A DNA stretch of 54,477 bases from a virus (taxonomy: Duplodnaviria; Caudoviricetes): positions 1 to 54,477 of IMG/VR virus record IMGVR_UViG_3300017956_000016; one strand, given 5' to 3'. Of the stretch, positions 19,008-49,542 are shown piece after piece (position 1 is the stretch's first letter; every line of letters begins with the position of its first letter). The position numbers and the translations under genes were made by a program. The notes under the pieces are model-generated. The model was not told the origin of the DNA. It ran no database searches and saw nothing but the letters and a program-made list of their open reading frames with translations.

Positions 19008-20543
19008 TTAGAACTCGATTACGACTTTAATGTCTTCAATTTGGTCACCAGCACGAGTGATGGGACCTCTATTATCTATGTAAATAATTCTTCCCGAATT
19101 TGGCTCAATCTCAGGATCGGCATAACCATTAGTAAATGCCATACCCAAGTCATATTCAGTGTTGTTGATAACACGAGTGGAAGTGCCAGATACAATCGGG
19201 AAGTTGATATCTGGGTCTCCAGACGTGCCAGAGATAGCACCCACAATCGGGTTACCACCGTCAAACTCTGTGAGACTACCTGTGATCTCAGGGAAAATAC
19301 CGTCAATTCTATTTTGATAGAATTTCAGGACTTTAGTTGTGCTATTCCAAGAAACAACACGACCACGAGCAGTCACTTGCTGACCACCAACAGTCCTTGA
19401 CTGAGTAACAATCTCGTCTGTTGTATAGTTGCCAGTAAATGTTGGCGAGAAGATTGCTGCCTTTGTGCCAGACAAAGTTAATTCTGCAGTCAATTCCTGA
19501 GTGCCAAATCTATTGGGGTTGAGCAAAAGACCAATACGACGATAATCGTTATCAGTCGGGAAGTCTCCGCTACCCTCATCGTAGGTAAACTTAGTGTTGA
19601 TCATCACACGATATCCGCCCAACTCTGTGTCTGGGGCAGCACCGTGACCAGTCGGGGGAGGAATGATAACCTCTACGTTAGCACCAGCGCCAGCGCCAGC
19701 ACCGATACCATTCACCTCGTCAATCACAACCTTACCGAAGGTGTAGTTAGATCCACCAGAAGTCACTGTGGCAGTAACCAACTTACCACCATCAACCACC
19801 AGAGAAACACGACCACCAACGCCGTCGCCCTTGATGGGCACGTTTTCGTAAGTGCCGTTGTTGTAACCTGTGCCAGAAGATCCAATAATAATAGTATCGA
19901 TCTCACCGCCAACTGCATCAGACACAACAGCAGTGTCATTCAACACTGGCATATATTCGTTGGAGAAGAATTTAAGCACCTGTCCCACAGGGATGGTGTA
20001 GAGATACTTCCAACGATAACCGTCAGCAGTTGTAATAATAGATGTCGATGTGCCTGTTGGCTCAACCGTGGAAGGTTTGCCGTTGGGGTCACTGGGAGAC
20101 GTGCCGTTGTAGATACACTTGTAAACTTGATACGATGAGTTAACAACGTAGAAGTCGGCGTCAAACAGTTTAGTTGCACCAGAAGATGCAGTCTTTGTTG
20201 AGGAGTAGTCATGACGATACATGTCATAGACATAACCCAAACCACCAGTTGTCTGCTCTGGGGGAATCCAGTTAACACGACGGACAACCTGAATAGTGTC
20301 GTTTGCCAAGACTCGCTTCAGGGAGATCATGTCAGCGAAGTCGTCAGAAAACTCCTGCAGAGAGTCTGTCGGATCGGGGGGATCATTCTCATTATCCCAA
20401 GACTGAGGGCGACCAATAAACACATAGAGTCTATCCCTGCTTGCGCCAGCATCCAAATCGGACTGGGCGGAATCAGGACCCTCAAGTGATTTGATAAATC
20501 GCTTCGCAGTAAAAATTCTAAACTGGTCGGTAAGTAGCGCCAT
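19008..20543 (-). CDS. gp8: Baseplate wedge subunit
   Basis: LYVFIGRPQSW, VVRRVNW, YDMYRHDYS, FYVVNSSYQVYKCIYNG, DGYRWKYLYTI and SGRIIYIDNR.PITRA.DQ.EDIKVVIEF motifs. Confidence 0.95.
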   Translation of the reverse strand: MALLTDQFRIFTAKRFIKSLEGPDSAQSDLDAGASRDRLYVFIGRPQSWDNENDPPDPTDSLQEFSDDFADMISLKRVLANDTIQVVRRVNWIPPEQTTGGLGYVYDMYRHDYSSTKTASSGATKLFDADFYVVNSSYQVYKCIYNGTSPSDPNGKPSTVEPTGTSTSIITTADGYRWKYLYTIPVGQVLKFFSNEYMPVLNDTAVVSDAVGGEIDTIIIGSSGTGYNNGTYENVPIKGDGVGGRVSLVVDGGKLVTATVTSGGSNYTFGKVVIDEVNGIGAGAGAGANVEVIIPPPTGHGAAPDTELGGYRVMINTKFTYDEGSGDFPTDNDYRRIGLLLNPNRFGTQELTAELTLSGTKAAIFSPTFTGNYTTDEIVTQSRTVGGQQVTARGRVVSWNSTTKVLKFYQNRIDGIFPEITGSLTEFDGGNPIVGAISGTSGDPDINFPIVSGTSTRVINNTEYDLGMAFTNGYADPEIEPNSGRIIYIDNRGPITRAGDQIEDIKVVIEF

Positions 20544-22422: not shown

Positions 22423-23897
22423 TAGACGACTACGATATTACCGACCATATTGCTATGGACTGTGCATTGATAAACATATGTGGTGCCAGCAGAAAGGCTG
22501 TGAGGCACGGTCCAATATTGAATGCCCATTTGGTTTCCTGTGACGCCACTGACTGCAGCTCCACCGTTGGAAACTCTAATCTCCAGCGGGTGGCTGGGAG
22601 CATTGTTTTCAAATCTGTATGTAAACCCACGATAGACATAAATCGTGGGATCGGTTTGACCCGAGAATCCAGCACCATTCAACGTATAATCGCTGTTGCT
22701 CGAAGCAGTGAATACGATGTTAAGTGCAGGTGATGCAACAGCATCCCACTGATTAACACCGTAAATGATATTCTGACCTTCCGATGCAGACGGCAGTTTA
22801 TATGCTGTTGTTTGATCGATTGTCAGGGTAGACCCAGCCAGGCTGGTGCTAATTGCAGCGCTACCAGTGATTGTAAATTCATCGGTAGAAGATGTTGCCG
22901 TATACGATCCACCAACACTATCGTTAATTGTCTGCAGGACGTTTTGCACCACATTAGGTGATGTGTTGGTGAATGTCAGGTTATTTGCATTGAGGTTTGT
23001 CTCAATACCTGTGCCGCCAACAAAGTTGATAGTATCTGTTGTTGTGGTTGCTGTGCGAGTGCCGTTGTCTGCTCCAAAGGTCACAAATACATTCTGATCA
23101 GGATCGCCCAGAGCGCCAGTCATATCAATAGTGACTGTATCTCCAGTGATCGTTGTCGAAATATTTGTGCCACCAGCAATAATCAAAGTATCATTTGCTG
23201 CAGAGGCAGTTGTCGTGCCCGTATCAGCATTGATGGTTTCAAAAAGGTTTTGTGTAGTGCCACCGCCAGTGCCAGAGTCTTCATCATTAGCAGGCTCCCA
23301 TGCAGTATTAGTAGCATTCCACTTCAGGACTTGACCATCGGAAGGACCACCATTAACTGTGGTGTCAACATCTGTGAGTGCAGAGATGCCATCGTTTACG
23401 TCAAGCAAACGAATCCAATTACCAGCATGAGCAAAGTAACCATTGCCAGGATCGTGAGCGTGGGCAAACATGCCATGGTGATCTGCTGCAACTGGGAAAG
23501 AAGCAACGTCAGCATAGTCACCAACATACTTTAGGTAACCATCATCGCCATCAATATATACCTTTCTGCTACCCTGACTACCTGCTTTGAAGTCGATGTC
23601 TCCAGTAGCGTTTGGCTCAATAACAATATTTCCACTGTCTTCCGAAACAATCTTGAATTCACCAACATTCAAGTCTGCACTCAGTCGATCGAAATGACCC
23701 TCAGCAAAGATCGATCCATTCCAACGCAACACTTGCCCATCCAGAGGAGCATTGATTCCAATCTGGAGGTTGGTGTCATTTCCTAATGATGCATATATCT
23801 CATCGATAACGGAATTGATTTTAATCGCACCGTCTCGTAGAGTATCACCTGTGCCATCATTAGCAGCACTGCCGACGTTAAGATTTTGCTTTGCCAT
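22422..23897 (-). CDS. gp9/gp10-type baseplate-anchored fibre with C-terminal cupredoxin-like domain (491 aa)
   Basis: N-terminal QNLNVGSAANDGTGDTLRDGAIKIN is the T4 gp9/gp10 N-terminal motif. DGQVLxWN fibre repeats follow. C-terminus PTIYVYRGFTYRF..SHPL..YVYQCTVHSNMVG. Confidence 0.75.
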   Translation of the reverse strand: MAKQNLNVGSAANDGTGDTLRDGAIKINSVIDEIYASLGNDTNLQIGINAPLDGQVLRWNGSIFAEGHFDRLSADLNVGEFKIVSEDSGNIVIEPNATGDIDFKAGSQGSRKVYIDGDDGYLKYVGDYADVASFPVAADHHGMFAHAHDPGNGYFAHAGNWIRLLDVNDGISALTDVDTTVNGGPSDGQVLKWNATNTAWEPANDEDSGTGGGTTQNLFETINADTGTTTASAANDTLIIAGGTNISTTITGDTVTIDMTGALGDPDQNVFVTFGADNGTRTATTTTDTINFVGGTGIETNLNANNLTFTNTSPNVVQNVLQTINDSVGGSYTATSSTDEFTITGSAAISTSLAGSTLTIDQTTAYKLPSASEGQNIIYGVNQWDAVASPALNIVFTASSNSDYTLNGAGFSGQTDPTIYVYRGFTYRFENNAPSHPLEIRVSNGGAAVSGVTGNQMGIQYWTVPHSLSAGTTYVYQCTVHSNMVGNIVVV

Positions 23898-23927: not shown

Positions 23928-25518
23928 TGCCATCAAAGGTTTGAGTTGTGGAGTCAAACGTGGTAGATGTGAAGGATAGGTCAGCACCAGTTTGACCAGC
24001 ACCACCGCCAAGGACAGTAAGTGTTGCCACATTAGATTCCAAGGGTGAGTTTTGTGCAGGAGCAGGAGCGCCAATGGGTCCACGAATCTCACACTTATAT
24101 CGGTATCCCGCCATGTAGGACAAGGCAGTGAATGTCAGTGAATTGGATGTTGCTCCTGTGATGACTGCATATGCAAATCCACCATCAGTAGATCTATACC
24201 AGCGATAACTGATAGGTCCGTTTTCTGGAAGAATTTGTGCTTGGATGCTGAATGTAACTGATGTATTTGCGTTGACAGAAGCAGACTGTGGTTGGAGGGT
24301 AATCTGCAGTGTGGGTGGAGTGACCGTCCCTCCGCCACCTGTGGGGGGTGCAGGAGGCGCTGCAGCACCGTTGTTTGGTGGTTGTGCTATGGTTTCCCTA
24401 GTGGTGCTACCAATCAGATATGGGAATGCTGGATGATCTACATCGCCAGGCAATGTTGAAAGGAAGTAAGCATATGTCCCACTTGGGAATTCGGGAGTCA
24501 CGCAGAATCTGCCATTATGATAGTCAAGGTCACCTAGACCCTCTACATACTCCCAGTCCTGCATCAGAGACCCTGCAGGGGGGTTTTGAGCAGTGCTACC
24601 ATATGCAGGTCTATTTTCTACTTCAATAGATCTTGCACGATATTGGGACTGCATTGGAAGAGTTGTTTGGGATGCCTGCCAAGGATCCTCATAACCATAA
24701 GGTCCATAAATGGGAAATCCATCAAATGCAAATCCAACGATCTTTGAGTGACCATCGGGGTGCCTTAGGTTATCTCCGTTAAACTGACTGCCACCGTAGT
24801 AGTCGTTATAGTTTGCCATGGAGGCATTGTCTTTCCAGCAATCTAGAAAGTGTGTGTCATGGTAGTGATATTGACCAGTTTGCTCTGGATGACCACCACA
24901 GGCATCATCGCCAAAATCTACAGGTGATCCTTCAAAGTGAGCGTTCCAGTTGAAACCCACAGGAGGATTACCGCCATTTCCAGCACTGGGGTTAAAGAAA
25001 ACAACACCATTAGCAGAAATGCCAATAGCGCCCAGCGGCGTAGCCGACCGCCCGTTTCTTTGGTCGTAGTATGTGTATGTCCTTCCTTCTGCATATGCAA
25101 TGGTTTGCGACTCTGCAACAATTAAGTCAAGACGATCATCTTCAGCCAACCAACATTCACCAGCGATAGATGTAAATACTGGTCCTCTAAAGATAAACTT
25201 TTGCTTTCTTCCATCGGAAAAAACAAAAAGGATGTTATCACCTGGGACAATTTGTCCACCACTAAATATCCCATTGTCATTCAATGACAAGTTGATAGAT
25301 ATCACAAAACCAGTTTGAGCGAATACGTTATCGTCAAACTGTCTGGGGGTGCCAAACTCACCACCTCTATATGTAAACGTCCATTCAAAATCCTGCTCAG
25401 TTACACTGTTTGGATTATTTTGATTAGGAAACGTCCCGTATGAAACGGGGGTGGGAAGACCATCCCCCGTTACGGTTAGTTGTTTAGTGCCAGGTTCGTA
25501 GCTTGCAGTTGCGGTCAT
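23923..25518 (-). CDS. YHYH-domain protein with C-terminal Ig-like domain (531 aa)
   Basis: TPLGAIGISANGVVFFNP, DACGGHP...QYHYH, HSKIVGFAFDGFPIYGPYG and GDLDYHNGRFCVTPEFP.GTYAYF. A Pro/Gly linker precedes an Ig-like domain (ITLQPQS..YRWY..YRYKC). Confidence 0.85.
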   Translation of the reverse strand: MTATASYEPGTKQLTVTGDGLPTPVSYGTFPNQNNPNSVTEQDFEWTFTYRGGEFGTPRQFDDNVFAQTGFVISINLSLNDNGIFSGGQIVPGDNILFVFSDGRKQKFIFRGPVFTSIAGECWLAEDDRLDLIVAESQTIAYAEGRTYTYYDQRNGRSATPLGAIGISANGVVFFNPSAGNGGNPPVGFNWNAHFEGSPVDFGDDACGGHPEQTGQYHYHDTHFLDCWKDNASMANYNDYYGGSQFNGDNLRHPDGHSKIVGFAFDGFPIYGPYGYEDPWQASQTTLPMQSQYRARSIEVENRPAYGSTAQNPPAGSLMQDWEYVEGLGDLDYHNGRFCVTPEFPSGTYAYFLSTLPGDVDHPAFPYLIGSTTRETIAQPPNNGAAAPPAPPTGGGGTVTPPTLQITLQPQSASVNANTSVTFSIQAQILPENGPISYRWYRSTDGGFAYAVITGATSNSLTFTALSYMAGYRYKCEIRGPIGAPAPAQNSPLESNVATLTVLGGGAGQTGADLSFTSTTFDSTTQTFDGT

Positions 25519-28500
25519 GCGTCGTCGAAGATTTGAGCAGGACTGAAGTTGGCAATGATTGTCGTGCCAATCTGGACCGACAAGATAGCAGAGTTACTGT
25601 AGACAGGTGTAGCACCAGCAGCAGTAATTGCCACTCTGTATTCGTCACCATCATCTTGTTGTGTCGTGACACCAGTCGGGAATGTAGAAGCGTTAGCGCC
25701 AATGATGTTAGTCCAGGCGGTTTGACCGTATTCCTTCTTCTGCCACTGATAATTCAATGTAGTTGTATTTATCGCACCATCGCTTGCCCTTCTAAATTCA
25801 GCAACGACTGTGAATGCAGCATTTTGACCCTGGTTAACTGTCACGTTAACTGGGCTGCTGAGGATAGCGACCAGACCATCTTCAACTACGATCGGGTTGC
25901 CCTGATAATCGGTTGCTTCTCCTGCATAAACATCTTGACCGTTGTTGACAGGCTCGCCCACGGGTGAAACAAAATCATCTTCAACGGTATTCTGCACAGC
26001 GATGAGTGGAGCACCATATGAAGCACCAGGACTCTTAACTTCAATTCTGGAGATACCCATCATTGGAGTCACGCGAGCGTCAAAACCAGTAGAAGAGATA
26101 ACCTCAACGTTTGGTTTGGATGTGTATCCGTCGCCAGGGTTGGTGATGTTTGCACTGATCACCTGACCGAGCGTGATGTCTGCAAGTGCTTCAGCGTTAC
26201 GACCCTTAACGGATCCTGTGTATTCAAAGGTAATCAGGGAGTTGGAAGACTCGATCAGAGCAACCTCACGAGCAAATTCTTCACCTTCAATATTCAATTC
26301 ATCACCAGTCTCAATCGGAGGCACGACTGTTGCAGAGATCACGTCAGCGTCAGATCCGATGTAGGAGAATCCAACGAATGTAGATCCTGCGCGAGGCACT
26401 TCAGAGAAGATAATTCTAGAACCGACAATCTCATAAGAGACTCCTGGCTCTTGAATGATGCCGTTGAGCGAGATTAGGATGTTATTTTCTGGCAGAATTG
26501 TTGCCGAAGAAACGCCCTCTGTCAAAGTCAGTGAGTAGAAGATACCATCCAACTTCAGGTTAAAGGACGACTTCAGGGAGTCAAACTCAAAGCTGATATC
26601 GTCAAGTTGACGGAGTTTGCCGACGTAGTAACCAATGAATTCGGATCCAACTTCGGGAGGCTCAGTAAACTGAATCTGATCAGAGAATGCTGTGTATGCA
26701 GCATTAGGAGGTTGCAGAATGCCATTAACAAAGACCAGCAGGTGACCAGCGGGATCTGGGAAGTATGCCTGACCATTCTCAATCGAGAGTGAGAAATCAG
26801 TCTGCACACCATCAAATCCACGGAAGTAACGGTCAACTCTACCTTCAAGGGTCGAAGCCGTTGTAACTGCAGCAGACCAACCATCATCACCACGGATGGA
26901 CATGTTATTGTAGAATTCACCAACAACCTGCTCAAGCCAAACTCTTGCAGTAATGCCACTTTGCTCAACAGCAGCGACCTTGCCATATGCGGCATAGTCG
27001 GTTTGAGTAACGTTACTAACAGTTGCGTAGATGGAGGGGAAGTTTGTGCCAACGTCAAATTTACCAATGTTGTTGCCAGAGATATTCAGAGCAGCAGCAG
27101 TCTCTCCCAATCCCACGGGTTGCAGATTTGCGATCCACAGTTTGTGAGGTGTGATGGGATTTGTTGTTGCATCATATGGTTGATACTTAGTGACGGTGGC
27201 AGTGAATCCAGGATTCTTCTGCACAGTGCCTTGGAGGAGTGTGACCTCATCTCCAGGTCTGAATGTGGCAGCAAGACCAGACTCAACAAACGTAGCAGCA
27301 ATATCCAATTCAATAACAGAGACGCCATGAATGGTGTCATTCACTTCGATAACGCCGTTGGGTTGATAGATGCCCTGCAGATCCAGGATGTAATCTGTCA
27401 AACTACCATAGATGATGTCATTGCTTTCCCAGGAGTTTTGGATTGTTTCCACATCCATCACAACACGACCACTTTCATTGCTGATAATAGCGCCAGATTT
27501 GTTTACATAAGAAACAATATCTGCTTCTGTGTTATCTGCCTTTTTGAAGATCACATCGCCGTTGGCATAATCGCCAAGGTCAACGTTGATCAACATGCGA
27601 TCGGTTTGCAACTCAATGGTGCCTTCGGTAGCAGAATCTTCGCCCACGAGGACATCACCAGTGACCCACGCAGCACCTGTCTTGTTGATAACTTTTAGAA
27701 TTGCATAGGTATTGCTTTCGTAGTAGTTAACTTGAAGGATGGTGCCAATCGACGTATTATCGCCATCTTTGTAGACTCTTTCATTGTTAGTGAATACTGA
27801 TATAATAGGATCAGTAAGATTATTAACTCTAATGTATGTGAATGTCTCTTTAACAACTGCAGTGTTGAAGGACTGAGCGGCAATTTCACCATAGACATCA
27901 GAAGATGTGCCATAAAGAATATCTGCAGTAATGAATCCGCCTTGATATGGGGTGTCTGTTGGAGGGTTGCCATAAGTGGTAGTTTCTCTCTCAACACCAG
28001 ATCTCACAACAACTTGGAAGAGGTGTTGATTTGTGTCAGATGTATCAAGAGCAAATGACTGATATCTGGCATCGTGCGTGGAGAATTCGCCAATCTCGAA
28101 GAATGAAGCATCAGCATTCAAGACATAGTAATAAACCTGATTGATGCCATCCAGAAGACTGCCCGAAGAAGGAATGTATTGGACAACATCACCACGACGG
28201 AAGAAGTTTGCACGATTGATTCTAACTCTAAATTCTGCTCTGTCATATCCAACAGGGACAGTCGGAGTCAGGACCACGAGTTGTGGATCGGTATTCCAGT
28301 CGAAACCTTCATCATAAGTGGTGCTGAGGTTAACAACGTCAGTGGAAGGCACGAAGGTTGTTTTTGCCTCAGTTGGGAAGATGGATCTTTCCAGTGCAAA
28401 CTCAAACGGGTTAATGGAGGAATCCATGTCAAACTCTGTGGACTCTTGATCCCACTCAGGACGATTGGGTGGAATGTAAATGCCAGGAGTTGTGATATAG

Positions 28501-31500
28501 GGTTGCCAACCAGCAGATGTTGGGCTATAGATGATGGACTTGACGTATTCTCTGATACGAGTCAGATGATAGATTAGGTGCGTGCGAGTGATGTTTTGAT
28601 AGACAATAAAGTTACCGTCACCATCAAACCAAGAGGAAAGTTTATCAAACGCAGCATTGTTACCTCTAGTGATGATGTCGTAGATCACAGAATCAATAAC
28701 TTGATCTGCAAAGTCTGCATCACCAGCGTAAGATGGGTAGAAAGTGACAGTTTGATCGTATGCTCTCTGCTTGATTGCCTCTCTGTTGAAGTGGATCAAG
28801 CGTGCATCAACTTTGCTGCTGTTGGTGCCAGCACCAAAGGCAGTTTGATACATATCGAAGATGGTAGCGATTGCCTGACGCACGTCATAGCAGCTGCCCT
28901 GGTTATATTCCGTGGGGGCAGTATATGTCCCATCAGTCTTAGTGACCGTGGTGCCATAATAAGTAAGACCATTGCCAGCAATACCAGCATCCACGCCTTG
29001 AATTAGGATGTCAAACAATGTGTCGATTGCAGTTGCCTGCTGACCACATGCCTGATTCCAATCTGCTTGGTTTGTGCTTCCAACAGAGTAGTCCCAAGTA
29101 ACGGTGAGATCTCTGATGGGGAGATCGCCAGAATACTTACAAGGCCAGATGTTGGGAAGATCGCCAGAATAACCACCGCCAACTGTCTTAGGATATGTCT
29201 GGGCGTTGAGACCAGCAGGATCTGCAACAGTATCAGTGAGGACTTGAATAAGGGCATCTACAGCGTCATCAACGTCAGTGTCGCTAACGGCAGAAGAAAT
29301 AGCAGTCACGCTATATGTGTTGCCAGCAGAAACAGTCGGATTGCCACCCTGATAGATCTGCTTGGCAATATCTCTAGCAGTATTGAAAATCCAAATGGAC
29401 TCATTTGCCTGAGAAGTGATGTGTTGCAGATTGCCAGAAGAAACGTAGTATTCTGCAGAGGTGACCATCATGTTATCGCCACCATTTTGCAGGTTCCAGG
29501 ACATCCAATACAGGATGTCTGCAACGTCATGCATACAATTTTCAGATCCACCAGGAATCACCAGGGAAGGATATTGTGCTTGACCACGCAGCACTGCTTC
29601 CTCAGCAATGAAACGGATGTTTCTTTCAATAGATCTTGCAGCAGCAATTCTATTGTCGGAAGCGCCATTTCTTTCGTAGGATTCGTAAGTGTAGGAGTTG
29701 TCGTTGTGACCATCGATGTTGAAACGACCAAAACCGTTTCTAATGGTAAGAATTGCCATTTCCTTGGCAAACTTAAACACAGTCTTAGTTGCTTCCTCCT
29801 CACCTTCAATGTGGGAAAGGAATCCATCTTCTCTGATATAGAGTTGACCTGCTTCAAAGATTTCAGCGTTGCCACCAAACCTAAGGTCATGGACCAGGGC
29901 GCCAAGAATGTCAACAACGTCATCAACGCAATTTTGACGACCACCAGGAACCTGGAAGTCTGCAAACTTGGACAAGTCATTCATCATGCCAACTGCTTCC
30001 TTGGCAATGATGTGCTTGTTGCGCTCGATCATATTTGCAGCGTCAACATAGCGATCTGACTGATTTCTAGTCTGATCAAACTGCTCAGGATCCAGAGTAA
30101 CTGTAGTGTCTCTATATGCACTTCTGGAGGTGTAGATTGCGCTGTAATATTCATCTTGATAGAGTGCAGCAGCTCCATTGCTAGCAGCGGTTTCTCCAGG
30201 TCCGAGCAGCAGGTTGTTTGCTGCCTTCATGCACAAATCCTTAGCAAACTCAAATGCTTCAAGCATCGGTTGCAACTCATCTGTGATAAACAGAATTTCG
30301 TTGTCGGAATTGAGATAGAAGTCAATCGCAGCCTGTGTTTGGTAGTTGCCACCAGTCTGGAGGTCGGCAATAAGGGCGGGGATGATATAGTCCTTCATGT
30401 CCCGAATGCAAGCATTGCGATCGGGGATATTCAGAGTATTGACAGTTTGCCCACCGAGACTAATTGTGTAGAGGTTTTCAATGTAACCGACTGTTTCTTC
30501 AGCGATATAATCGCGGTTTTTCCAGATCAAGTCACCAGCATTTCTAAATCTGTGACCAGTAGGAGCAAGCTCATCAGCGATATAATCGCCAAGGGTGTCG
30601 AGTCTTGTTTCTACCTGAGTCGTGCCAGAAAGGGTATGGGGGATGCGAAGTTTGGTGGTGTATGTGCCAGACAGATCGGCAGATGCTGTGTTGATCACAT
30701 ACTTGCAGAGTTTGATGACTTCTCTCCAAGAATAGAGAGTCTGCAGCAACTCACTGCCAATAAACTTCAGATCGCCACCCTTGTTTCTATAGAAGCGTGC
30801 GTTGACGATAACGTTGTAGTTACCACCTTCCTTGAGGTCTTGGACAATAGCAGGAATGATGTAATCTCTAGTATCTCTGATGCAGATATTTGTGCCACCA
30901 TAAGATCCAGCAGCAGCACTGTCACCAGGAATAACAAAGTCGGGATAGTGTGCCTGCATGATGCCGACTGCTTCTTCTGCAATCCAAGCAGCATTCGCAG
31001 AAATGATGTCTGCAGAATCTCTGTAGATTTCATTTCCGAGATCAATCTCTTCAATAGTGATACGCTTGTTTTCATAATCAACGGCACCAAGAGTTGCAGA
31101 AGAAATGTTAGTGCCAGACAAAGTAGCAATCACATCGCCAGTGCCAACAACAGCGCCTTGCTGAGCATTCAAACCAAGGACAACACCAGTCCTGGTGAAG
31201 TCTGTGATGGTTGGACTTGTGAATGCAGCAGTGCGATCTGCATATCCTTTCCTGACCAGGAAGTTATCGAGATATCCATCAAGGTTATCGCCGCCGCCAG
31301 CGTTAGATCCAACATGACATTCTTGACTAATACCATAGTTGTTATTGTCAGCATCGCTGGAAACTTCAGCACCATCAATAAACAACTTTGTCGTTGATGT
31401 CTCAGAATCTTTAGAAACTGAAATGTGATACCATGTATCTACCACTAGACCAGCAGATGTTGTCTCAGAAACAGCAGTGCCGTTTCTCATCCAAGAAACT

Positions 31501-34500
31501 GTGTTGCCAGAGTTAGAAACAATCAGATAACCAGCGGAAGTGTCGCTCACATCCAGTCTATTATCGACCAGAGTAATTGTGCCCGTCAGAGAATTGAATC
31601 TGAAGTAACCTTCGATTGTGAAAGATCCATCTTCAAAACCAAAGTCATAGCTACGAGTTGCTTGACGGATATAGGGGCTACCGCCAGAGGTAAACGAATA
31701 ACTTGAAGTATTGTTTTGAATATTTGTGTTGTAGATGACGTTGCTGATGGAGACATTGTTTGATTCCAGACTGGAGTTTGTAATCAACTCTCCATTTTGG
31801 AATGCGCCTGTAATATTTCCACCATAGATCCACTTCAGACCAGAGTTGGACCCCTTGATTGGAGTGGTAGCATTGCTAGTGATACCTCTAAGTGTTTGAC
31901 CAGCAAAGAAGATCTTATTGCCACCCTCAGCATCTTTGTATGCAAATTTAGTAACACGAATAACCTCACCCGACTGATATCCACCATCGGTGATGATAAC
32001 CTCAGTGGGAGCAGTGCGGGTAGCATGTGACATGTTACCGTTGGTGTAAGACAGTGTGTAGATGCTCAGAAGAGAATCGACAAGTGCCGTCTCAGTGTTA
32101 CATGGAGTTAGAGATTGATCTGGTGTGATCGATACATCGAAGAATTGTTTCTTGCCATGGACGCCAGTAACAGCGACTCTAGGATAGAAGTAATCACCAC
32201 CAGCATGAGTGAAGTGCAGGTGTTGGAGGATGACACTAGATCCGTTGCTGAATGCAGGAGTGCCATCAACTGTGATGCTTAGAGTGCCATTCACTTCATC
32301 ATAAGTTGCACTCATGACGTTGTGGGTTGCTGATGCAGTGCTGACTTTGCCAGATCCAACATAAACAAAGGAATCACCAGGATCCAGAGATACAACAGGG
32401 ACAGCGACACTGAAGGTATTGCCAACTAGACCAGAAACGGTATGTGCCGTTGCCGAATTCTTGAGACATTCTTTAGCAATAGTTGCAACTTCTGCATAGA
32501 TGTTTGTAACTTCAGTTGGTGTTGCAGTGGAGTTATCGTATGCGATGGAATATGTGCCAGCATCATAAATTCTGCTGTTTCCACCATAACGAATGTCATA
32601 CGCGATTGCTTCAATGACATCTTTAATGTCGTCGAGGCAGTCATTGTCATTGCCCGTGGAAATGCTGAATCCAGGGTTTGCTGTCTTATAGACAAACAGA
32701 CCTTCTGCAGCAATAAATTCCTTATTCTTCAGGAGAAGGTCAGCAGCATCAATGCCATTGTTGCCGCCTGCAGTTGTGGGATCTGCATAGAGACCAACGA
32801 TCTTAGGACCACCAACACCTTCTGAAGTATAAGAAATAGCACCAGTTAGGTTGTGGGTATTCTCCGCAGCGAGAGATGTTGTGATGATATTTGTCAACTC
32901 TCTGACTGTTTGCTGGATATCCAAGCAATTAGTCAGGCTTGTGTTGTTACCTGCGCTGTAGTTTGCGTCATATGTGTAACCAGGAGCAGTGCCACCATAA
33001 GATGCAGGATCATTAAGGACTGCCAAGTCCTTAACAAACAGGAGGTTATTCATCGCATAATACATCATGTCTCTTGCTTTCAGCAGTGCTGTAAGAGACT
33101 CAGGCACCTCGCCATACAGACCATTCAGCAGGTAGTTGCCAGTTTCATCAAAATAGTTTTCAGCAAAGAATTGCGAATTAAACTCACCACCAGAAGCAAC
33201 ATCATTTGCAATGGCGTCAACAAAGTATCCAACATCTCTACGGCACTTCTCTTGGTTTGGTGTGAAGGAAGGCTTGGTCGATGCAGGAATGTCTAGAAGA
33301 TTTCCAGCAGTCAACGCCTCATCTTGCCATGTGTAAATTGTTGTCAGAGCAGCTCTAACATCAGCACAGGACTCGGGATCGTTGTTATCTGTATTGGTGC
33401 CTGGGGTGCCATATGGATCTCCAGGGGATACATCTGCAGTAATTGATTCATCGACATAACCAACTGCTTGATCACTGCTATTGACAGCAGTCCAAAGACC
33501 ACCATAGTTATTTGTGATTGCAGATTCGCAGTAAGCCTTTGCTTGACCCAAAGCATAAAGTAATTCAGAAGTGTTTCTGTCGTAACTTACAGTATTTGTA
33601 TCTGTGAAATACTCATTGATCCACTGCAGTGAATAGAGGTTGCCACCAGAATGAAGATCCAGTGCTACCGTTTCAACCCAAAGTCTCAGGTCGCTCAGGT
33701 ATCCGTCCTTGTCACCAGATGGTGTTGCAGGATACTGGGTCTTAAGATCATCATATGCATTGTGGATGATCTTATCAATATTTTTAATCAGTAGGCGATA
33801 AGCATCTCTATATCTGGAGGTGGTGTTTGTTTGGATATCTCCAGGGTAGTAGAAGTCTGGATGCACAACTGCAATTTCCCTTTCTGCTCTGTCAATGATT
33901 TCGTCCTTATTGAGACGAATCAGACGAGCGGCATCATATGCTCTATTGGATGCATTTGTGGTTACATTTCCATAGAAAATGGATCTGTTTCTGAGTTGAT
34001 CTCCCTTAGCGAAAGATCCTCCAGTAAGATTCTCATATTCAACTTCAGTGCTTCTAACCTCTTCAAAGTCGAGGAAGTCTTCATTGATTCTGGCACTGGA
34101 ATCTGTTACAGAGACTGGAGTGATGCTGGACTGAGAAATGTCATCAAGAATGATGTTGGGATTCTGAATAGCAACCAGTCTTTCATAAATCAGACCGAAG
34201 AATGTAGATCCTTGGTTAATGATAAGAGTGTCAACTGGTTGACCATTGTTGGGATCCAGGTATGGGCTGATGTAGATAATTTGAGCGACAATCTTACTCG
34301 TTGCCGAATAGATATACTCATTCAATTTGAGGTCAAAGATACCAGTTTCAAATCTTGCTGTGCCAGATGTCTTACTAACCAACAGTTCGTCAGTCAGGTT
34401 ACCATCTTCGTCAATGTTTGTGGTTTCGACCAGGGCAGTATCGCCCTCAAAGTTGGTGATAGACTCGCCAAACTTATAGATGCCCTCAGTATTCAAGAGA

Positions 34501-37500
34501 GTGACGCTTTCAACGATTGCGCTGAAAAGAGTTGTCCTCTTAATCAATTCACTGATCTCGAAAGGACCATCAGTGATGTTGATAACATCAATGTGGAATG
34601 TCCCAGAGTCAACAACAGTTGCATATGCCTCAGAGAAGTCTCCAGTAACTTGCTGACCGATGGTCGGGAAAATACCTTGAGGGTCGGTCAGTTGGATTCT
34701 ATAGACGGGGACAGTTGCAACTCGGATTGTGCGATATTTAACTTGAGATGCTGCCTTGGGTGGCTCATCAAAAACAATTTGACCACCAACAACACTATAT
34801 GCACTCTGGGGTGCTTGGATCACGCCATTCAGGGTGATAACCAGTTGGTTGGAATTGACAATAACTTGCTCACCCTCCACCGTAATTGGGAAGGTTTTTT
34901 CAATTCCATCAAATCTGCCAGAGATGTCATCGATTTTCTTGACGATAGATGTCAAGATTTCCTCAGAAGAAGTCAGTCTCTTATTTCTAAACAGGACTTC
35001 AGTGTTGTTGTAGTCTGTGTAGACGGGTTCGGCAGCACCGAAAGATGTAATTTGGTTGACGTTGGAGTACTCGTTAATGTTGACCTGCTTGATAAACTCA
35101 GTGCCAACACGACGACCAGAAACGTCCTTACCACCAGTCAGTTGCAGCTGACCAAACAGTTTGAAACCAGCAGGGTGGTTGTTATCCAGAATCTGTTTCT
35201 TCCACTTGGTGATGGGAATCTCAGAGCTGATAACGTAAGAGAAGTTTTGGTAGAAGAAGGAGTCTTGGATCTTCTGAATAATCTCAGAAGGTTTACCAAC
35301 ATCATCTGTGAAACGACCAGGAGTCGAGGTCAGGGAGTCAATATTCAACACACCCTTGGCGATGCTCAGGTTGTCGATAATACCAGATGCTTTGGACACC
35401 TCACCGTTGATCTTTTCTCCAACAGCAAAGTTGCCTGTATAGTTGACAATCTTCAGGATCTTGGGACCAGACTGCCAACCAGTGTTAGTGGAGACATAAC
35501 CAGTCGCAGATGCCAATTCGGGGCTGCTGCCTTGATAAATTTTCTCACCAGCAAGGAATCTAGAAGTTGCCACGACTGCTTCTGCTCTACCACCAAAGAC
35601 CTCAGTCAGAAGAGTCTGACGACCTTCACCTTGAGTCAGGAAAGTGATATAGTCACCAGCAGCTGCTGCCTCTGGTGTCAGAGCAAATCTCAACTGGTCA
35701 GAATCCAGACCATCAGCGATTGCATAGTAAATCTGACCTTCAACCAACGAAGTCAAACCAACACTGCTAGGTTTGGGCAGGATGCCAGTCGTTGATCCAA
35801 CATCATCAGCACGCAGTTGGACTTCAGCAGCAGTGGTAATGCCATGAGGGAAGTTAAACTGCAGATAGTTGAGGTCGAGGTTAATGACATAGTTAAACTC
35901 AGACTTCAGAGTAACCACGGGCTCGGAAGAATAACCACTACCAGGATTCTTGATTTGAATCTCATTCAAACGGTTGTTTTTCACAACAGCAACTGCTTCG
36001 GCACCTGTGCCACCACCGCCAGAGATGACAACAGCAGGAGCAGAGGTATAACCAGCACCAGGATCAGTGATCTTGATCTCTGTCAGAATAGATGTATTGA
36101 AGAGTTGCAGGTTGACTGGGAAGGAAATCTCAGGACGCAGAGTGTAGTCATGGGAATAACCGAAACCAAACTCATTATTCTTGAGTCTCTTGATCTTACC
36201 AATGTTTTTACCTGTCAGGAAGACAGAAGCACCGCTACCTTCGCTGGGGATGATAACGCTCAGAGCAGCACCAGATCCAGCGAGAGTGGGTCCAAGAATA
36301 CCTGTGATACCATCAACATCGATAGATGCTGTTGTGTATCCTTTACCAGGATCGGAAACTTGAGCAGAGGTGATAGCACCAGATCCAGTCTCATCATCAA
36401 GAGTAACTGTAATTGTAGCAAGACCACCTTCTCCGTCACCAGCAATAGGCACCTGATAGTAAACTCCAGGTTGATATTCTGTGCCACCATCAATAATTTC
36501 GATTCTTTCAATTTGACGGAAAGATGCAATATCAGAAACCACAGGAAGTTTCTGATAGAAACCACCAGGAGACACAAGTTTGATTGTGTTAATCGGACCA
36601 ATCGCCTTAACGGAAGTGGTGGAATAGTAACTATATGGGTTACCATTTTCATCATCTTGGACCTCAGCGTTAGTGGTCTCTGGCTCAACAAGAAGTGGGA
36701 ATTTGAATTCGGTTTGACTTACAACCTCAGAGATTTTGAAAGTGCCATCGAAAGGTGTCTTAATGACATCGATGAAGGAATTAGATCCAACGGGGGAATC
36801 TGCACCAACTCTTGACGGGTCGAAGTAGTAAGAAATATTGGTAACGTTACCAATGGCAGAGAATTTCACATAAGGCTGGCTACTAACACCAGACACACCA
36901 GGGGTGCCAACTCTAGTAATGTTGTTGAAAGAGTATTCGAGTTTATACTGGTTGTCTTGTGCAAACGACAGATAGTAACCGAAGTTTGTGCCATCACTAA
37001 CGTCAAAGACATATTGATGGTTTCTGATGAAGTTAATCGTGGGATGCTTAGCGTAAATGTTTACACTAGCAATAGTGCCTTGGTCAAATGTTGGAGCACC
37101 AGTAGCGGTGTCTCTGATCTTGAAGATGAATTCTCTAGATCCAAAGACTTCTTGGACGAAGAAAGATCCATTAAATTCATCTGCAACAAATCCTTCAGTA
37201 TAAAGGACTTCATTGACCACATAATTGTGGGGAGTGAGTGATGTTGCGTAAATCAGATCAGTGAGAGCACTGCTGCTTCTCTTGATATCTTTCTTGAGTG
37301 TGCAAACCAACTCAACTTTCTTAACCGAGGCGAAACCAGAAATTGTAAGGACCTTTTCCTTATCTGCACCCTGGTCATCGATTGTGATATTTGCAGAGCT
37401 GAGAGCGACCACATCACCAGGAATGTAAGAAGATGCAGGTTGCACATCCAGAATTTTGACTTGGTAGTTTGCGCCAGCGTCAAATCCAAGGAATCTTGCA

Positions 37501-40500
37501 TAATCTGAAAGTGCTTCCTCTGTGGATATCCAAGTCCATGTAACACCACCATCGCTAGCATCACCAGTCAGATGGACAGGAGCAGTGTCACCAGATGTGC
37601 CAGCAACTGCAACTTCATAGACGTTTCTCTTCCAGAAGACTCTGTATCCAACAGGATACAGGACACCTTCATCCCATCTCTCCATATCAGATCCCAACCA
37701 CTGAGGCAGGGGATACGGCTCCTCTTGAATATCGATGGTAAATTGACCAGCGGTCCTAATAAACACCCAAGTAATTGATCCGTCACTTACAGCACCAGTT
37801 GTATGAGTCGGAGGAGTTACACCAGAGGTGCCACCTGCTTGTGCCTCATAAATTCTGCCACCATAGTAAACTCTATCGCCAGTGGCATATGCTGTAGCAG
37901 TTACCCAAAGATCTTCTTCCTCAATACCAACAAACTTACCATCCATGGTATTAACGTCTGTTGCTTCAGTGGATTGGAGAAGCTCTCCGTTATCAAATGT
38001 GCCAAAGATCTTACCAATTTTGTATGTTGTGCCAAGACCAGGATTGGTAGTGGTGCCAGTCGGCACATCAACAATAGTGCCATATGCTTGGACAACACCG
38101 CTGTCGTTAACTTGCTGAAGAATTGATCCCTTGGTGAATTTAGCGTCTTGATTGAGGGTAAATTCAAAGATGTTGTCGATCTTGCTGTATCCAGCATCTT
38201 TAATGTAGAATTTGGGGATGACGTTTGGAGTGACAAACATCTTCTGACCATTCTTCACTGGGACAGTAGAAGACTTGGAGGACAGAGTTTCTTTTGTATT
38301 TGTCCATGTATATGTCTGGACAGTGGTATACAGAGACGGAGCATCAGAGAAGTCCAGAAGTTGCAGACCACCAGCACCAAGATCCCACTGATCAACTGCA
38401 GGTTGTGTTGTAACCTGAGTCCAAGTGCCAGCAGTAAATTCGGAAATCGTGAGATTGACGTGGTTAGTTGCTTCAGTGAGTGTATAAGTCCCTCTAGAAG
38501 TGGAGTGCTGTCTGTCGATCTTGACCATGACGATATCAGAATCGACACTGGTCACTTCAAACTGCTCAGTGGGCAAAGTAAATGCATTCGCATCAGTAAA
38601 CTCAGCTTTACCTGACATCACAACATCGTCGATGTTGCCTTGGAAACAAAGGGAAGAAGTCTGAGAAGAATCTCCACCAACAGCGATGTCACCAACATTA
38701 ACGTCAATTAGTGACTGATATGTGATAGCAGGATTGCCATTAACAAATACTGTAAAGTCCCAAACACCAACAGCGGTATTCTCCTTAACTATAGCAATGT
38801 GGACCCAAGCACTAGATCCAAATTCAGTATAGTAAGTGTTGGCAGCAGACACACCCACCTGGGTGCCGTTGATGTCCAACTCAACCTTTCCTTGATCAGC
38901 GTCACCATTGATGCCATTGATTCTGACCTGACAACCAGTAGAGGAATCAATTTCTGTAATGTCGAAGAAAATTGGAGTTGTATTCTGTGCTGCATATTGA
39001 GCAGTTGCCATGTTAAACCAACCAGCAACAGTCCAATTCAAAGCCGATGAATCAATGTCAGCATAAAGGAGTCTGTTTGGTGCAGTGAATTTCAGCGACC
39101 CTGTGCCAAACTTGTAAATTGCTTCATCGATTGATGCATCTCCAGGCACAGCAATGCTGAATGTGCCAATATTTCTCTTGGTGGTGTCGTAATCGTCATC
39201 ACTGGCGTCATCAAATCTAAAGACTGCAAACTGCTCTGGGACGAGTCTTTCATTGATGACGATAATATCACCAGAGTTATCAACAACAGAAGTTTTGTTT
39301 CTCGATCCAACCTGATCGGTAGTTTCGATGATGCTTTCATATTGAAGCGTGCCATCAAACTTAAGGGAATGGATGGTTGTTGCTTTTCTATCTTCCGCAT
39401 AGTCAATAGTAGTAGTAATGACAACGTTGCCGAAGATGTCAACGTGGAAACCAGTTGCATTGATGGAAGTGTAGTCTCCCTGAGGAGTCATAGTTTTGAT
39501 AAACTTCCAAGCATTTGCATTGTTTACATCAGAAAGAGTAAACTTACCAAATTGAATTCTTTCAAACTTACTATTAGCGTTGTTAAATACATCCCAGCAG
39601 ATGAATACGTCACCATACTCATCAATTTCAAACTTGGAGTTTCTTACATAACCACCACCGATGGGGGGAATCTGCTTGACGTAATCAACTTCGATGTTTG
39701 CCCCATCGAAGAAGAATTCACCATAAATGAGGTTATCTGTATCAAAGTTAACGCCAGTGAAGAAGAATCTGTCATCGGAGATCCACTTGATTTGGTCAAT
39801 TCTTTCATCACCATTGGAAGAAGCAATCTTACGCTTCTCTTTGATGTCGCCATCATTGTTGGATTGAATGACCCAGATATCCATCGCATCTAATGCGTTA
39901 GTATCTGTATAACCAACCAGATAGATTGACTTATTCTGATCCAGATAGATATCACTTACGAAATCCCTTCTGGCAGGACCAGAGATACCTGCGATAGATT
40001 TCTGCCACTGTAGAGTGCCTGTGGGGGCATTCTGAGCGTCTCTTTCGGAGATATACTTACCAAACCAGATATCAGGGTTAAATGCTGCGTTGTTGGGATC
40101 ATATGTTTGGCCTGCAACATAAATGGCGTCGTTTTCTTCTGTGTCATCAACATACAGAGAAACGAATTCCATTCTCTTGACGCCAGCGTTGTTGGGCAGC
40201 AAAGTCCTAACCCAAAGCACATCTCCATTGACATCAAACTTAGCGAGGATGCCGAGCATATCGTCATCTTCGGTTTCTTCAAGAGATCCACAAACGTAGT
40301 ATTCTCTCTTGCTGGTAATTGTCGAATCGTGGACCTGCAGAGTGCCACCATCATTCAGATATTCAGACAACCAATATCTAGTCTTGGTAAACGATTGTGG
40401 GTGACTGACACGAATCTGCGGGGGGTCGTTAATATCAAAACCATTACCAGAGTTGATGATATTAAAGGAATCTGCAACACCATCGGATCTGAGGTTAATT

Positions 40501-43500
40501 GAAAACTCACCATCTTTACCATTGTTGCTGATCAGCTCATAAGTGGGAGGAATGGTCGCTGTATATCCACTACCAGGGATATCAACGGTAACATCTTCAA
40601 TACCAGACACCACCTTAACTTTGAAAGTCTTGTTGGTGTTGGCGGTGATGGGCTCAGAGTTGACAATGATTTCATCGCCAGCAATCAGATCATGATTCTC
40701 AGATGTTGTGATAACACCGTAGGGTCTATCGTTGATGATCTCCTTACTATATGACGTGACTGCAACACCTTTAATCGAATCGATGATTGCCGATGCGCCA
40801 AAACCACCTGTGCCTTCGTTGTCAAAGAAAATAGTGTCATTGACCTGATAAGATTGACCAGGGTTTTCAATAACGAAACCATCAATCTGTGCAGTTTCAA
40901 ACTGAGTAACAGTTTCAATGTCAATATCGACTTTGGACTCTGCAGAAACTTTCGGGAAGTAATCATAAATTTGCAGGGTTGCTTCCTCGGTCATCTCCAG
41001 AAGCTCTTGTTGCTCTAGAGCATCGATGATGCCATCCTGATTGCTATCTTGAATCTCAAAGATGATGGGCCAACCTTCATTCTCTGTCGTCAGGACATCA
41101 GACTCTTGGTTTGGTTGACGCTCAACATCGATATCAACCTCAACAAAAGGCACACGATATCTAACAACGTCTGTGGGGATGTTTTCTTGAGTTGCACCTT
41201 GAGACAGGTTCCAGGAGTCTGGGAGTGAGTTGAATGCTCCACCCAAGATGTATGGAAACTGAGGAATACCTGCATCAGAAGAGTCGATGGTTACAAAGTA
41301 TGCATAGGTGCCATCGGGATACTCTGGTGTTTTGCAGAAACGACCATTATACTGATCGAGATCACCAGACTGGAAGACATACTCATAGTCGGGCACAAAG
41401 GATCCAGCAGGATAGTCCGAAAGCAAAGGACCATCTACCCTAGCGGGGTTTGTATTGGTCAGAGCGTCATAGACGATCTCATCTTTCAGTTTGTAAGATG
41501 TGCGAAGTCTTCTGATACCACTGTTTTGGTCAGTGGGATCGCCATAACCATAAGGTCCATAAATCGGGTTGCCGTCATATGCCCAACCCAAGATTGGAGA
41601 GTGCTTATAGTTTGTCTCTAATTCTTGGAATCTATTCGTTTCTGCATTGAGGAAGACGTTATCGCCAACCACATAACGCAATTCCTTGGGGTCGGAGAGG
41701 TGGGCATATTCACCACCATATTGGTTGTTGAGACCAGTAAAGACGTAACCTCTAGCAACGTCATACTTGGAATTCAACTCATATTCAAAGTTTTTATTCC
41801 ATTCAAACACCTGCGCTTCAAACGTTGCAAAATCGCCAACTGCTTCAAGTCTAACAGTGGTGTTACCTTGGGTATAGTTAATACCTCTGTTTACGATCTC
41901 AATACCAATTACTTTACCAGCGTCTTCACCAGTAGTTGCAATAGTCGCCTTAGCAATAGCACCAAATCCATCACCGTTGATAATGACTCTAGGAGCAGTG
42001 GTATAACGTCTACCAGAGTTAATAGTAGCAATAGACACGATACGGCCATTCAGGACGATCGGTTGTGCTAGAGCACCTTCACCAGAGGTCACAGTGACCT
42101 TAGGAAGCGATGTGTAACCACTACCAGCATTAGTCAAAGTGACAGACTGGATAGGACCACGAATGTTTGCAATAGCAGTAGCACCCGTGCCACCACCACC
42201 AGTAATGGTGATGCTAGGTTGGGAAGTGAATCCACTACCAGGAGATGCAACCAGAATTCTGGTGATAACACCATTAGTAACCACAGCGGTGCCAGATGCA
42301 CCTGTGCCACCTCCACCAACGATGGAGATTAGTGGAGAAGTTTCATAACCACTACCACCATTTGTGACCTCAAAAGAGGATACGCTACCGTTAACGGTAA
42401 CAGTTGCAGACGCGCCAGCTCCACCACCACCTTCGATCAAGACTACTGGGGGAGCACCAGCATCATAGTCTTGACCAGGATTTGTAACACTAATACCAGT
42501 AAGAGGACCAAAGAGAATTGCCTCAGCAGACTTATATGTCCAAATAGAGACACCATTCACCCATGCACCAATAGCGGTGTTGGGTTTGATCACTTCTCTT
42601 TCTGAAACGGTATTAACAACCCTGGGGATCCTAACCAGTTTTCTCTGGTTACCAGGGATAAGTGCCGATCCAGTAAAGGGTCCAATCTTGTAGTTTGGCA
42701 GACCAGATGCTGCCACATACACAAAATTATTGTTAAAGAAGGAGTTTTGAATATTAGTCGTAAACTCGGTAACGACTCTATTGATTGCAGGTTCTGTTGA
42801 CTTACCTCTGTTGAGGTCAACGGAAAGCAGAATATTGCCAACAGGAACAATGTCGCTAGGGGTGTCGATTCTATACGAGAAAGTATATTCATCGATACGA
42901 GAAGAAACTTGGAATGTGCCGTTGTAAATAACTGGGTTTGCACCATAGATTGTGACGGTATCTTCCACAAGCAGACCGTGGGGTTGCTCTGTGGTAACAG
43001 TTGCAATCTGAAGAAGACCACCAGGCTCGATGTTATCGACCTGAATCAGTTTCTTAACATTGTAGAACCAGGATTCCAGTCTTTGCTCACCAGGGGAGTC
43101 GGATCCCAAAGCAGCAACGTTGAGTTTGTCACCTGGCAGGTAGTAAGATCCAGTATCATCCAGAACAGTGCCTGCTGCTTCAGCAATACCAAGCACACGC
43201 ATCTTCACTTCATTGCTTGTGCCTTTATTGGCATAAATGAAGATATTGGACGAAATCAAAGACCCTGGATCCCAATCTTCGACAACACCATTTTTAGATC
43301 TGGTGCATTCGATAAATTGGTTGAGTGATTTTTCCTTATACTGAACTTCTTCAGTCTCAGAAATAAAGAATGTGCCATTTCTCTCTGGCCATCCAATAGT
43401 GGAGTCAACAGTGATAATCTGATCTGTTGTAGTCAGAGGCTCGACAAGACGAGTGTTGTATGGGATTTTGAATGTCCCAACAAGTGTTTCCTCAGAAATG

Positions 43501-49513: not shown

Positions 49514-49542
49514 ATTATACATCATCCAGACCAAACTGTCAT
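49514..49542 (-). promoter_or_regulatory. Sigma70-type promoter ATGACA-N17-TATAAT
   Basis: 5/6 match at -35, perfect -10 and 17-nt spacer, 23 nt upstream of the ATG at 49490. The -10 also reads TATAATTA, one mismatch from the late promoter. Confidence 0.6.

Follow-up and report, generated by a model that had tools for sequence, protein, structure and literature searches.

Phycobiliprotein-like globin repeats with a conserved bilin-attachment site in a giant, putative baseplate protein of a cyanophage

The IMG/VR virus record IMGVR_UViG_3300017956_000016 was analysed over its whole length of 54,477 bases (the window; estimated completeness about 30%). Its minus strand contains a single open reading frame (ORF) of 6792 amino acids (25515..45893), which to judge from its neighbours encodes a protein of the virus baseplate. 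Within this giant ORF we find eight helical repeats which are, almost certainly, homologous to phycobiliproteins by sequence and predicted fold. In most of them the cysteine that carries the chromophore in phycobiliproteins has been retained. That a bilin is covalently attached to at least some of these domains and is carried on the particle is quite possible, and in our opinion only just short of probable.

Eight repeats in one giant ORF

The giant ORF encloses the stretch 28500-33950, for which a first-pass annotation, made from the letters alone, had proposed about eight helical repeats. Eight units (U1-U8) were confirmed by mutual alignment and by a profile derived from related phages. They lie within residues 3971-5798, and the pairwise identities to U4 are 15-33%. 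All six Cys codons that had been named as candidate attachment sites (33243, 32637, 30882, 30408, 29928 and 29535) are indeed in frame, and each of these cysteines is followed by Asp at position +3 (CRRD, CLDD, CIRD, CIRD, CVDD and CMHD). Counting all units, the site Cys is present in six of eight, the Asp in eight of eight and Arg at position +2 in three of eight. Among the 17 window ORFs tested, the profile finds the repeats in the giant ORF alone; this check is partly circular, since the window's own units sit in the profile. The units are:

33450..33983, minus strand: U1, residues 3971-4148; PF00502 at 22.7 bits in two stretches; Tyr replaces the site Cys, Asp kept
32994..33437, minus strand: U2, residues 4153-4300; site C4217 (codon 33243), motif EKCRRDVGYF
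32430..32987, minus strand: U3, residues 4303-4488; site C4419 (codon 32637), CLDD
30564..31043, minus strand: U4 plus helix H, residues 4951-5110; site C5004 (codon 30882), CIRD; complete A-B-E-F-G-H globin core as predicted
30168..30668, minus strand: U5, residues 5076-5242; site C5162 (codon 30408), CIRD
29679..30218, minus strand: U6, residues 5226-5405; site C5322 (codon 29928), CVDD
29313..29708, minus strand: U7, residues 5396-5527; site C5453 (codon 29535), CMHD; best Pfam stretch
28500..28979, minus strand: U8, residues 5639-5798; site Cys gapped; a Cys-capped helix-H-like motif precedes the unit

As delimited by the profile, without the helix H extension, U4 comprises residues 4922-5087.

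The helix A/B region of U1 is duplicated in tandem (residues ~3975-4031 and 4027-4052; 33801-33971), in line with its two Pfam stretches. Fibre proteins of the cyanophage S-PM2 contain runs of matches that span the A/B helices only (profile positions 46-108). Therefore, part-domains are repeated as well as whole domains.

Sequence relationship to phycobiliproteins

A comparison with the Pfam phycobilisome profile had been suggested as a check. A 2001-residue piece of the giant ORF matches this profile (PF00502) with an E-value of 5.6e-14 and 52.8 bits, above the curated cut-off of 22.2, although five of the eight units give no match at all when searched singly. Of the remaining three, U1 exceeds the cut-off (22.7 bits), and U7 (18.7) and U4 (15.6) stay below it. 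The match spans only positions 27-84 of the 155 profile positions. A likeness of U2 to the phycobiliprotein motif LNGL, which had also been put forward, was supported by no search, and U2 is among the units without a Pfam match.

When U4 alone was compared with the sequences in the PDB, 15 matches were obtained at E<=10, 14 of which are phycobiliproteins. ApcF ranks first (6hrk_A, E 0.01), and in its alignment the phage Cys lies opposite the chromophore Cys. For a broader profile, 546 repeat instances were gathered from 73 related IMG/VR loci, reduced to 90 at 75% identity and combined with the eight units of the window (98 sequences, A2). The top PDB match of this profile is CpcA from Gloeobacter (2vjr_A) with an E-value of 3.7e-7, and the best 60 of 127 matches at E<=1 are all phycobiliproteins. 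The alignment covers CpcA chain residues 36-102, comprising helix B, the PG loop and helix E; here the phage motif nkCvrD stands opposite KCARD, with GG at the end. The phage Cys and Asp are thus in the register of Cys84/Arg86/Asp87 of CpcA. A separate profile of the U1/U2 type gave six PDB matches, all of them CpcA chains aligned at KCARDIGYY (E 0.19-0.63).

The identity between phage repeats and phycobiliproteins amounts to 11-23% only, and the nearest subfamily is not distinguished: alpha chains lead with the 98-sequence profile, beta chains with an 8-sequence profile and in the fold searches. The register of helix B, PG loop and Cys-x-Arg-Asp on helix E, followed by GG, is common to the repeats and the phycobiliprotein beta-subunits (CpeB, CpcB, ApcB/ApcF and cryptophyte beta chains; PF00502). 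However, beta-subunits are free proteins of ~170 residues, whereas the phage domains follow one another, head to tail, within a virion protein of 6792 residues. Furthermore, the phage units lack the X-Y hairpin, most of them lack helix H, and the Arg is often replaced.

Predicted fold of the repeats

The evidence on the fold comes throughout from predicted rather than solved structures. An AlphaFold model of a single unit (mean predicted local distance difference test, pLDDT, 81.2; predicted template modelling score, pTM, 0.73) shows helices at residues 31-42, 44-58, 76-98, 102-110 and 125-144, and no order is predicted for the 30 residues ahead of helix A (pLDDT below 50). In a Foldseek search of this model against the PDB the best 50 matches are all phycobiliproteins or the 'bacterial fluorescent protein' 8u0f, with E-values of 0.07-0.26 and template modelling scores of 0.36-0.57.

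A second structure search, independent of Foldseek, covered 48,161 chains. The single unit is most similar to phycoerythrin (5aqd_M, Z 11.8) and ApcB1 (8imk_G, Z 11.4, 2.3 Å over 107 residues); far-red allophycocyanin, the bilin domain of ApcE (Z 11.3) and photocobilins (Z 10.3 and 8.8) are also among the leading matches. Haem globin sensors rank lower, with Z-scores of 8.7 or less. Thus, the Foldseek check that had been proposed for the repeats returned matches of the phycobiliprotein type among those listed, at E 0.07 or weaker, and the globin-like core is backed by the independent search, most strongly by the extended U4 described below.

A four-unit model derived from 62 orthologues (A3; pLDDT 78.2, pTM 0.55) displays one helix pattern four times over, with an extra helix at model residues 148-165 after helix G of U4. 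Taken together with helix H, U4 superimposes on beta-subunits with a Z-score of 17.2 and a root-mean-square deviation (rmsd) of 2.1 Å over 138 aligned residues, corresponding to chain residues 31-177, a span that reaches from helix A to the far end of helix H. The 50 matches listed are all beta-type chains or 8u0f_C; 160 chains reach Z>=8. Among the matches listed, the beta chains range from Z 15 to 17, with rmsd values of 2.0-2.9 Å over 131-149 residues. With this search tool helical models often reach a Z-score of about 13 against unrelated chains, and the value of 17.2 for the predicted U4 appears well above this background. In U5-U7 the model contains helices A-G, and the long helix H is absent. 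Hence, the phage domains are predicted to have a beta-subunit-like globin core consisting of helices A, B, E, F and G, with helix H in some units. Where the confident matches in a search of the BFVD fold database are named, they belong to Synechococcus phages or to an uncultured Caudovirales phage.

The X and Y helices had been suspected to be missing, and the models agree: the best structural matches begin at chain residue 31, and the lead-in to helix A is disordered. Because the X-Y hairpin serves the pairing of alpha- and beta-subunits, the modelled phage domains are not classed as light-harvesting alpha/beta subunits.

Two further groups of known proteins resemble the repeats in their architecture or in their remoteness from light harvesting. 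The core-membrane linker ApcE likewise contains a phycobiliprotein domain within a long multidomain protein (4xxi_A, Z 11.3, rmsd 2.9 Å, 98 residues). It is, however, a cellular protein with one bilin domain followed by linker repeats, and a specific sequence affinity of the phage units to ApcE was not seen. Bilin attachment to ApcE needs no lyase, which is a precedent for autocatalytic loading. Photocobilins (8j2y/8j2w; the two Z-scores given above) are light sensors. Together with 8u0f (8u0f_C, Z 16.9 to U4 with helix H) and the BBAGs of Rockwell et al. 2023, they represent non-photosynthetic bilin-binding globins, i.e. phycobiliprotein-like globins outside light harvesting. Unlike the phage repeats, these are cellular bacterial proteins and do not form tandem arrays.

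Could an unrelated helical bundle resemble helices B and E of phycobiliproteins by chance or convergence? The scores of single units are marginal, with most units unmatched in Pfam and a best single-sequence PDB E-value of 0.01, and the Z-scores that helical models reach against unrelated chains call for caution. On the other hand, the broad profile retrieves nothing but phycobiliproteins among its best 60 matches, the Pfam score lies above the curated cut-off, and the superposition of U4 extends over 138 residues across helices A-H. Moreover, sequence and structure agree on the register and place the Cys on helix E. A chance likeness is therefore extremely improbable and can be virtually dismissed.

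Conservation of the chromophore site

In the alignment of 98 diverse repeats the site Cys occupies 76 of the 79 cells that are not gapped; the other 19 repeats are gapped at this position, like U8. Asp is found at +3 in 88 of the 98. In phycobiliproteins this Asp holds the pyrrole nitrogens of the chromophore. For U4-U7 we compiled 62 distinct orthologous sequences, which are 48-84% identical to the window and have 87 of 581 columns invariant. Cys, Arg and Asp of U4 are each conserved in 62/62 sequences. In U5 the Cys and the Asp are found in 62/62 and the Arg in 57/62, and in U6 both Cys and Asp are again present in 62/62. U7 retains the Cys in 42 of 43 aligned sequences and the Asp in 43/43. 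Two other cysteines in U4-U7 are variable (32/62 and 19/62 orthologues), and no second conserved Cys was found within the repeat core across the 98-repeat alignment.

The site Cys, which corresponds to Cys82/84, and the Asp are under strong selection. The conserved bilin-attachment Cys that had been claimed is therefore borne out, since no residues of the repeats are conserved more strongly than the Cys and the Asp of the '84' site. A lone, unpaired and invariant Cys at the thioether position, beside the pyrrole Asp and in an extracellular protein, is the strongest argument for a site that is still in use.

A second cysteine motif

A second motif, N-C-[AS]-D-V-Q..A-I-x-T-L, occurs in five copies in the giant ORF. 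Its Cys caps a helix that resembles helix H. The five cysteines are:

33366..33368, minus strand: second-type Cys C4176, Cys-capped helix-H-like motif
32925-32927, minus strand: second-type Cys C4323, Cys-capped helix-H-like motif
32100-32102, minus strand: second-type Cys C4598, Cys-capped helix-H-like motif
29043-29045, minus strand: second-type Cys C5617, Cys-capped helix-H-like motif
28890-28892, minus strand: second-type Cys C5668, Cys-capped helix-H-like motif

In related loci, 96 of 102 distinct copies of the motif contain the Cys, a count that is biased because every seed contained it. In the four-unit model a Cys-less copy after U4 is predicted to take the position of helix H of beta-subunits. 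If so, the second-type Cys would be located at the end of the G-H loop, which is where Cys155 of beta-subunits sits. Sequence comparison with this site gave no match: a profile of 50 positions (A4) had no PDB match at E<=10. The profile of the U1/U2 type mentioned above (A5) comprises a unit and the second motif; its six matches, to CpcA only (E 0.19-0.63), were all at the Cys84 site, and the alignment did not extend over the motif.

Distribution among phages

A profile of the eight units was run against 1.84 billion proteins and found 1270 representative clusters at E<=0.001, 389 of them at E<=1e-30. Single proteins contain up to 35 repeat stretches; three metagenomic proteins of 4799-6382 residues (P0003-P0005) hold 31-35, with 35 in the one of 6382 residues. 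In isolates, some of the proteins that contain the repeats are annotated as tail fibres, either short or long (S-RSM4, S-PM2 and S-WAM2).

For the host range, U4-U7 of the window and three distant family members were used as tblastn queries against 50,697 phage records and matched 369, 356, 251 and 415 records, respectively. All matched records are named Synechococcus, Prochlorococcus, Cyanophage or Marine virus, bar two obtained with one query, the 2927-residue protein P0022. These are one 'uncultured' and one 'Pelagibacter' record, each matching over some part of P0022. In the T4-like Pelagibacter myovirus HTVC008M the repeat profile finds nothing at E<=1. The first-pass annotation had named an equal frequency in phages whose hosts make no bilins as evidence that would speak against its proposal; in the tblastn search the repeats occur almost only in phages of Synechococcus and Prochlorococcus. 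As a caveat on this host restriction, the giant proteins themselves are specific to the cyanophage group.

An apparent occurrence in 'Candidatus Nanopelagicaceae' (P0116 and P0160, both partial and in one 90% cluster) was rejected. From end to end, P0116 shares 65% identity with the short tail fibre of S-RSM4, and most likely these proteins stem from a cyanophage contig that was mis-binned into an actinobacterial metagenome-assembled genome.

The distribution and the site conservation together bear on an explanation without any bilin. A cyanobacterial fold might have been captured as a helical spacer or adhesion module for baseplate arms and tail fibres, with Cys and Asp being kept for folding, for binding of a metal or another ligand, or for inter-chain disulfides in oxidising sea water. 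The long chains, with as many as 35 stretches in one protein, and the occurrence in tail fibres correspond to the behaviour of a structural repeat. The missing X-Y hairpin, the absence of helix H from most units, the frequent replacement of Arg86 and the loss of the Cys in two window units and in the 19 gapped repeats are also in agreement with such a role. However, fold stability hardly explains why one unpaired Cys per domain is invariant in 62/62 orthologues, at the chromophore position and with the pyrrole Asp, when other cysteines vary. For a disulfide, a second conserved core Cys as partner is absent, and the confinement of the family to phages of bilin-making hosts is likewise not expected of a mere spacer. 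We consider a bilin-free building block a substantial possibility, which nevertheless remains somewhat doubtful.

Light-dependent adsorption and bilin genes

The light dependence of adsorption can be compared for five cyanophages. According to Liu et al. 2019 (PMC6628666), P-HM1 and P-HM2 fail to adsorb in darkness, whereas P-SSM2 and P-SSP7 adsorb without light. The same source cites Jia 2010 for light-dependent adsorption of S-PM2 without a need for photosynthesis. The repeat profile and three Pfam families were run against 19 named genomes, of which 18 belong to myoviruses and one to the podovirus P-SSP7. The domain is present in 15 of these and absent from P-SSM2, S-SM2, S-SSM7 and P-SSP7; in the latter four, neither a protein query nor PF00502 at E<=1 gave a match either, with S-PM2 as positive control. 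P-HM1 and P-HM2 have six domain matches each and S-PM2 has 11. All matches that reach the site contain C-x-x-D (9/9 in S-PM2, 5/5 in P-HM2), mostly as C-x-R-D. Hence, light-dependent adsorption tracks the domain in five of five phages of known phenotype.

The gene cpeT is found in 13 of the 15 domain-bearing genomes and in none of the four domain-less ones; S-ShM2 and P-SSM7 have the domain and no cpeT match at E<=0.001. A naive Fisher test of this association gives about 0.004 (hand estimate). We rejected it as statistical support, since the gp20 tree provides just one independent pair.

Weighing a possible bilin-bearing baseplate

The proposal that the baseplate may bear bilins is partly supported, by homology, predicted fold, site conservation, the baseplate module and host restriction; the link to bilin genes is weak. 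Several observations count against it. In the gp20 tree the domain-less myoviruses P-SSM2, S-SM2 and S-SSM7 form one clade (Shimodaira-Hasegawa-like approximate likelihood ratio test, SH-aLRT, 100), so that the domain changed once, and this single independent contrast lends no statistical weight to the correlations with cpeT and with dark adsorption. The ferredoxin-dependent bilin reductase (6/15 domain-bearing versus 2/4 domain-less genomes) and heme oxygenase (2/15 versus 2/4) show no link to the domain. Of the co-occurrence with bilin genes that had been anticipated, only the cpeT part was thus observed, and that as one event.

Other adverse points concern the site and the fold. Two of the eight window units have no site Cys. 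Arg86, which contacts the propionate of the chromophore in phycobiliproteins, has its counterpart at +2 in 44 of 79 repeats, where Asp (21) and His (10) also occur. Foldseek found no PDB match for the single-unit model at E<=0.001. In U5-U7, which are modelled without the long helix H, the shape of the cleft may differ, or the cleft may be open. We know of no coloured cyanophage preparation. Finally, T-type lyases serve Cys153/155 of beta-subunits and not Cys82/84, as stated in the review PMC10452541. If the second-type Cys described above were a site of the Cys155 type, the objection that CpeT-type lyases skip sites of the Cys84 type would fall.

If bilins are bound, loading would presumably occur in the infected cell during synthesis, each Cys-bearing domain taking up phycoerythrobilin or phycocyanobilin as a thioether. 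The bilin would be supplied by the host or by the phage, and attachment could be autocatalytic, as in ApcE, or mediated by a host lyase or by the phage CpeT. T4 gp7 is present in six copies per particle. With six sites per chain and six copies, the assembled virion would then display a chromophore array of about 36 sites on its baseplate arms. Light absorbed by the bilins might change the conformation of the arms and thereby permit adsorption. A light-gated arm of this kind would explain why S-PM2, P-HM1 and P-HM2 adsorb in the light only. Nonetheless, we regard light-gated adsorption through bilin domains as unlikely. The same holds for the more extensive idea of the virion as a photoreceptor, in which bilins on domains of baseplate arms and tail fibres, bound at Cys84-type and perhaps via CpeT at Cys155-type sites, would respond to light while the particle is extracellular and gate adsorption; it is a similarly long shot.

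A bound bilin need not act as a sensor. It could be a photoprotective screen or quencher, or the domains could capture bilins and occupy lyases inside the cell before assembly, acting as a sink or decoy. The evidence from conservation and fold applies here as it does to a sensory array, and cyanomyoviruses carry cpeT and bilin-synthesis genes, the benefit of which to the phage is unsettled. However, a few dozen bilins per particle could presumably not shade a DNA of ~180 kb, and a giant late structural protein would be an odd intracellular decoy. Such a non-sensing function seems decidedly improbable to us.

No earlier description of phycobiliprotein-type domains in phage virions was found in the open literature, the scope of our search, which did not include subscription journals and database annotations. 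The phage passages seen in the BBAG paper (PMC10151467) concern the enzymes PcyA and PcyX and not globins. With pigment-protein domains that have an intact attachment site on the adsorption apparatus of light-dependent phages, the question of light gating becomes experimentally approachable. If bilin is bound, no virus particle with a sensory module that bears a chromophore would, as far as we know, have been found before this one. The phage cpeT would then gain a substrate in the particle instead of the host antenna, and there would be a reason for the bilin genes of phages. If bilin is absent, the repeats nonetheless show clearly that phages have put an antenna fold of the host to new use in building the virion, and in either case the phage family is large, as the 1270 clusters show.

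Genomic context of the giant gene

The source virus is a P-TIM40-like cyanomyovirus of the T4 type. Cyanophage P-TIM40 (host Prochlorococcus NATL2A) is the nearest isolate, with 64% identity across the repeat block. Its genes are arranged in the order gp25-like, gp6-like, a 'putative structural protein' of 7351 residues, hypothetical, gp10-like, hypothetical, gp8-like and a second giant protein, and the gene order on the minus strand of the window is identical to this baseplate module. Therefore, the giant gene occupies the place of T4 gp7. The relevant features are:

47986-48405 and 45898-47982, minus strand: ORFs matching baseplate wedge families (PHROG and synteny), gp25/gp6-like genes
25515..45893, minus strand: giant ORF, virion structural or baseplate wedge protein, at the T4 gp7 position by synteny and PHROG
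31257..31643, minus strand: Laminin_G_3 / concanavalin-A-like lectin domain of the giant ORF, residues 4751-4879; Pfam E 1.9e-11, 44.8 bits, cut-off 27.6
22422-23897, minus strand: ORF matching a wedge/tail-fibre connector, gp10-like position
19008-20543, minus strand: ORF matching a wedge subunit, gp8-like position

The giant ORF itself matches phrog_701 ('virion structural protein') and phrog_2885 ('baseplate wedge subunit'); the Pfam family Baseplate_wedge reaches 21 bits, below its cut-off of 27. The baseplate location assumed earlier thus agrees with the module found here, and the label 'baseplate protein' for the giant ORF, probable as it is, derives from synteny and PHROG matches. With T4 gp7 the giant ORF has in common the slot between gp6-like and gp10-like genes and the PHROG wedge matches. 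T4 gp7 has a length of ~1030 residues. The giant ORF is about six times longer, its globin block has no T4 counterpart, and its likeness to Baseplate_wedge stays below the threshold.

Outside the repeats the giant protein had been described as beta-rich; what Pfam locates there are three binding-type or other domains. The Laminin_G_3 domain stands between U1-U3 and U4-U7. Further upstream in the protein are a YHYH domain (residues 1343-1537, ~41283-41867; Pfam E 1.1e-29) and a weak match to the carbohydrate-binding family CBM_5_12 (residues 2663-2692, ~37818-37907; 21.4 bits, cut-off 26.2). The giant ORF seems to combine several binding modules in mosaic fashion.

Downstream of the baseplate genes, the minus strand encodes two further giant virion proteins, in both of which the globin repeat is absent. 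One has 2481 residues (11559-19004) and belongs to phrog_358, of unknown function; the other, with 2250 residues (4206-10958), matches a 'structural protein'. Just upstream of the gp25/gp6-like genes, an ORF of 176 residues (49522-50052, minus strand) matches the PHROG family 'PAAR motif of membrane proteins' with an E-value of 1.1e-17 and is possibly the spike-tip protein.

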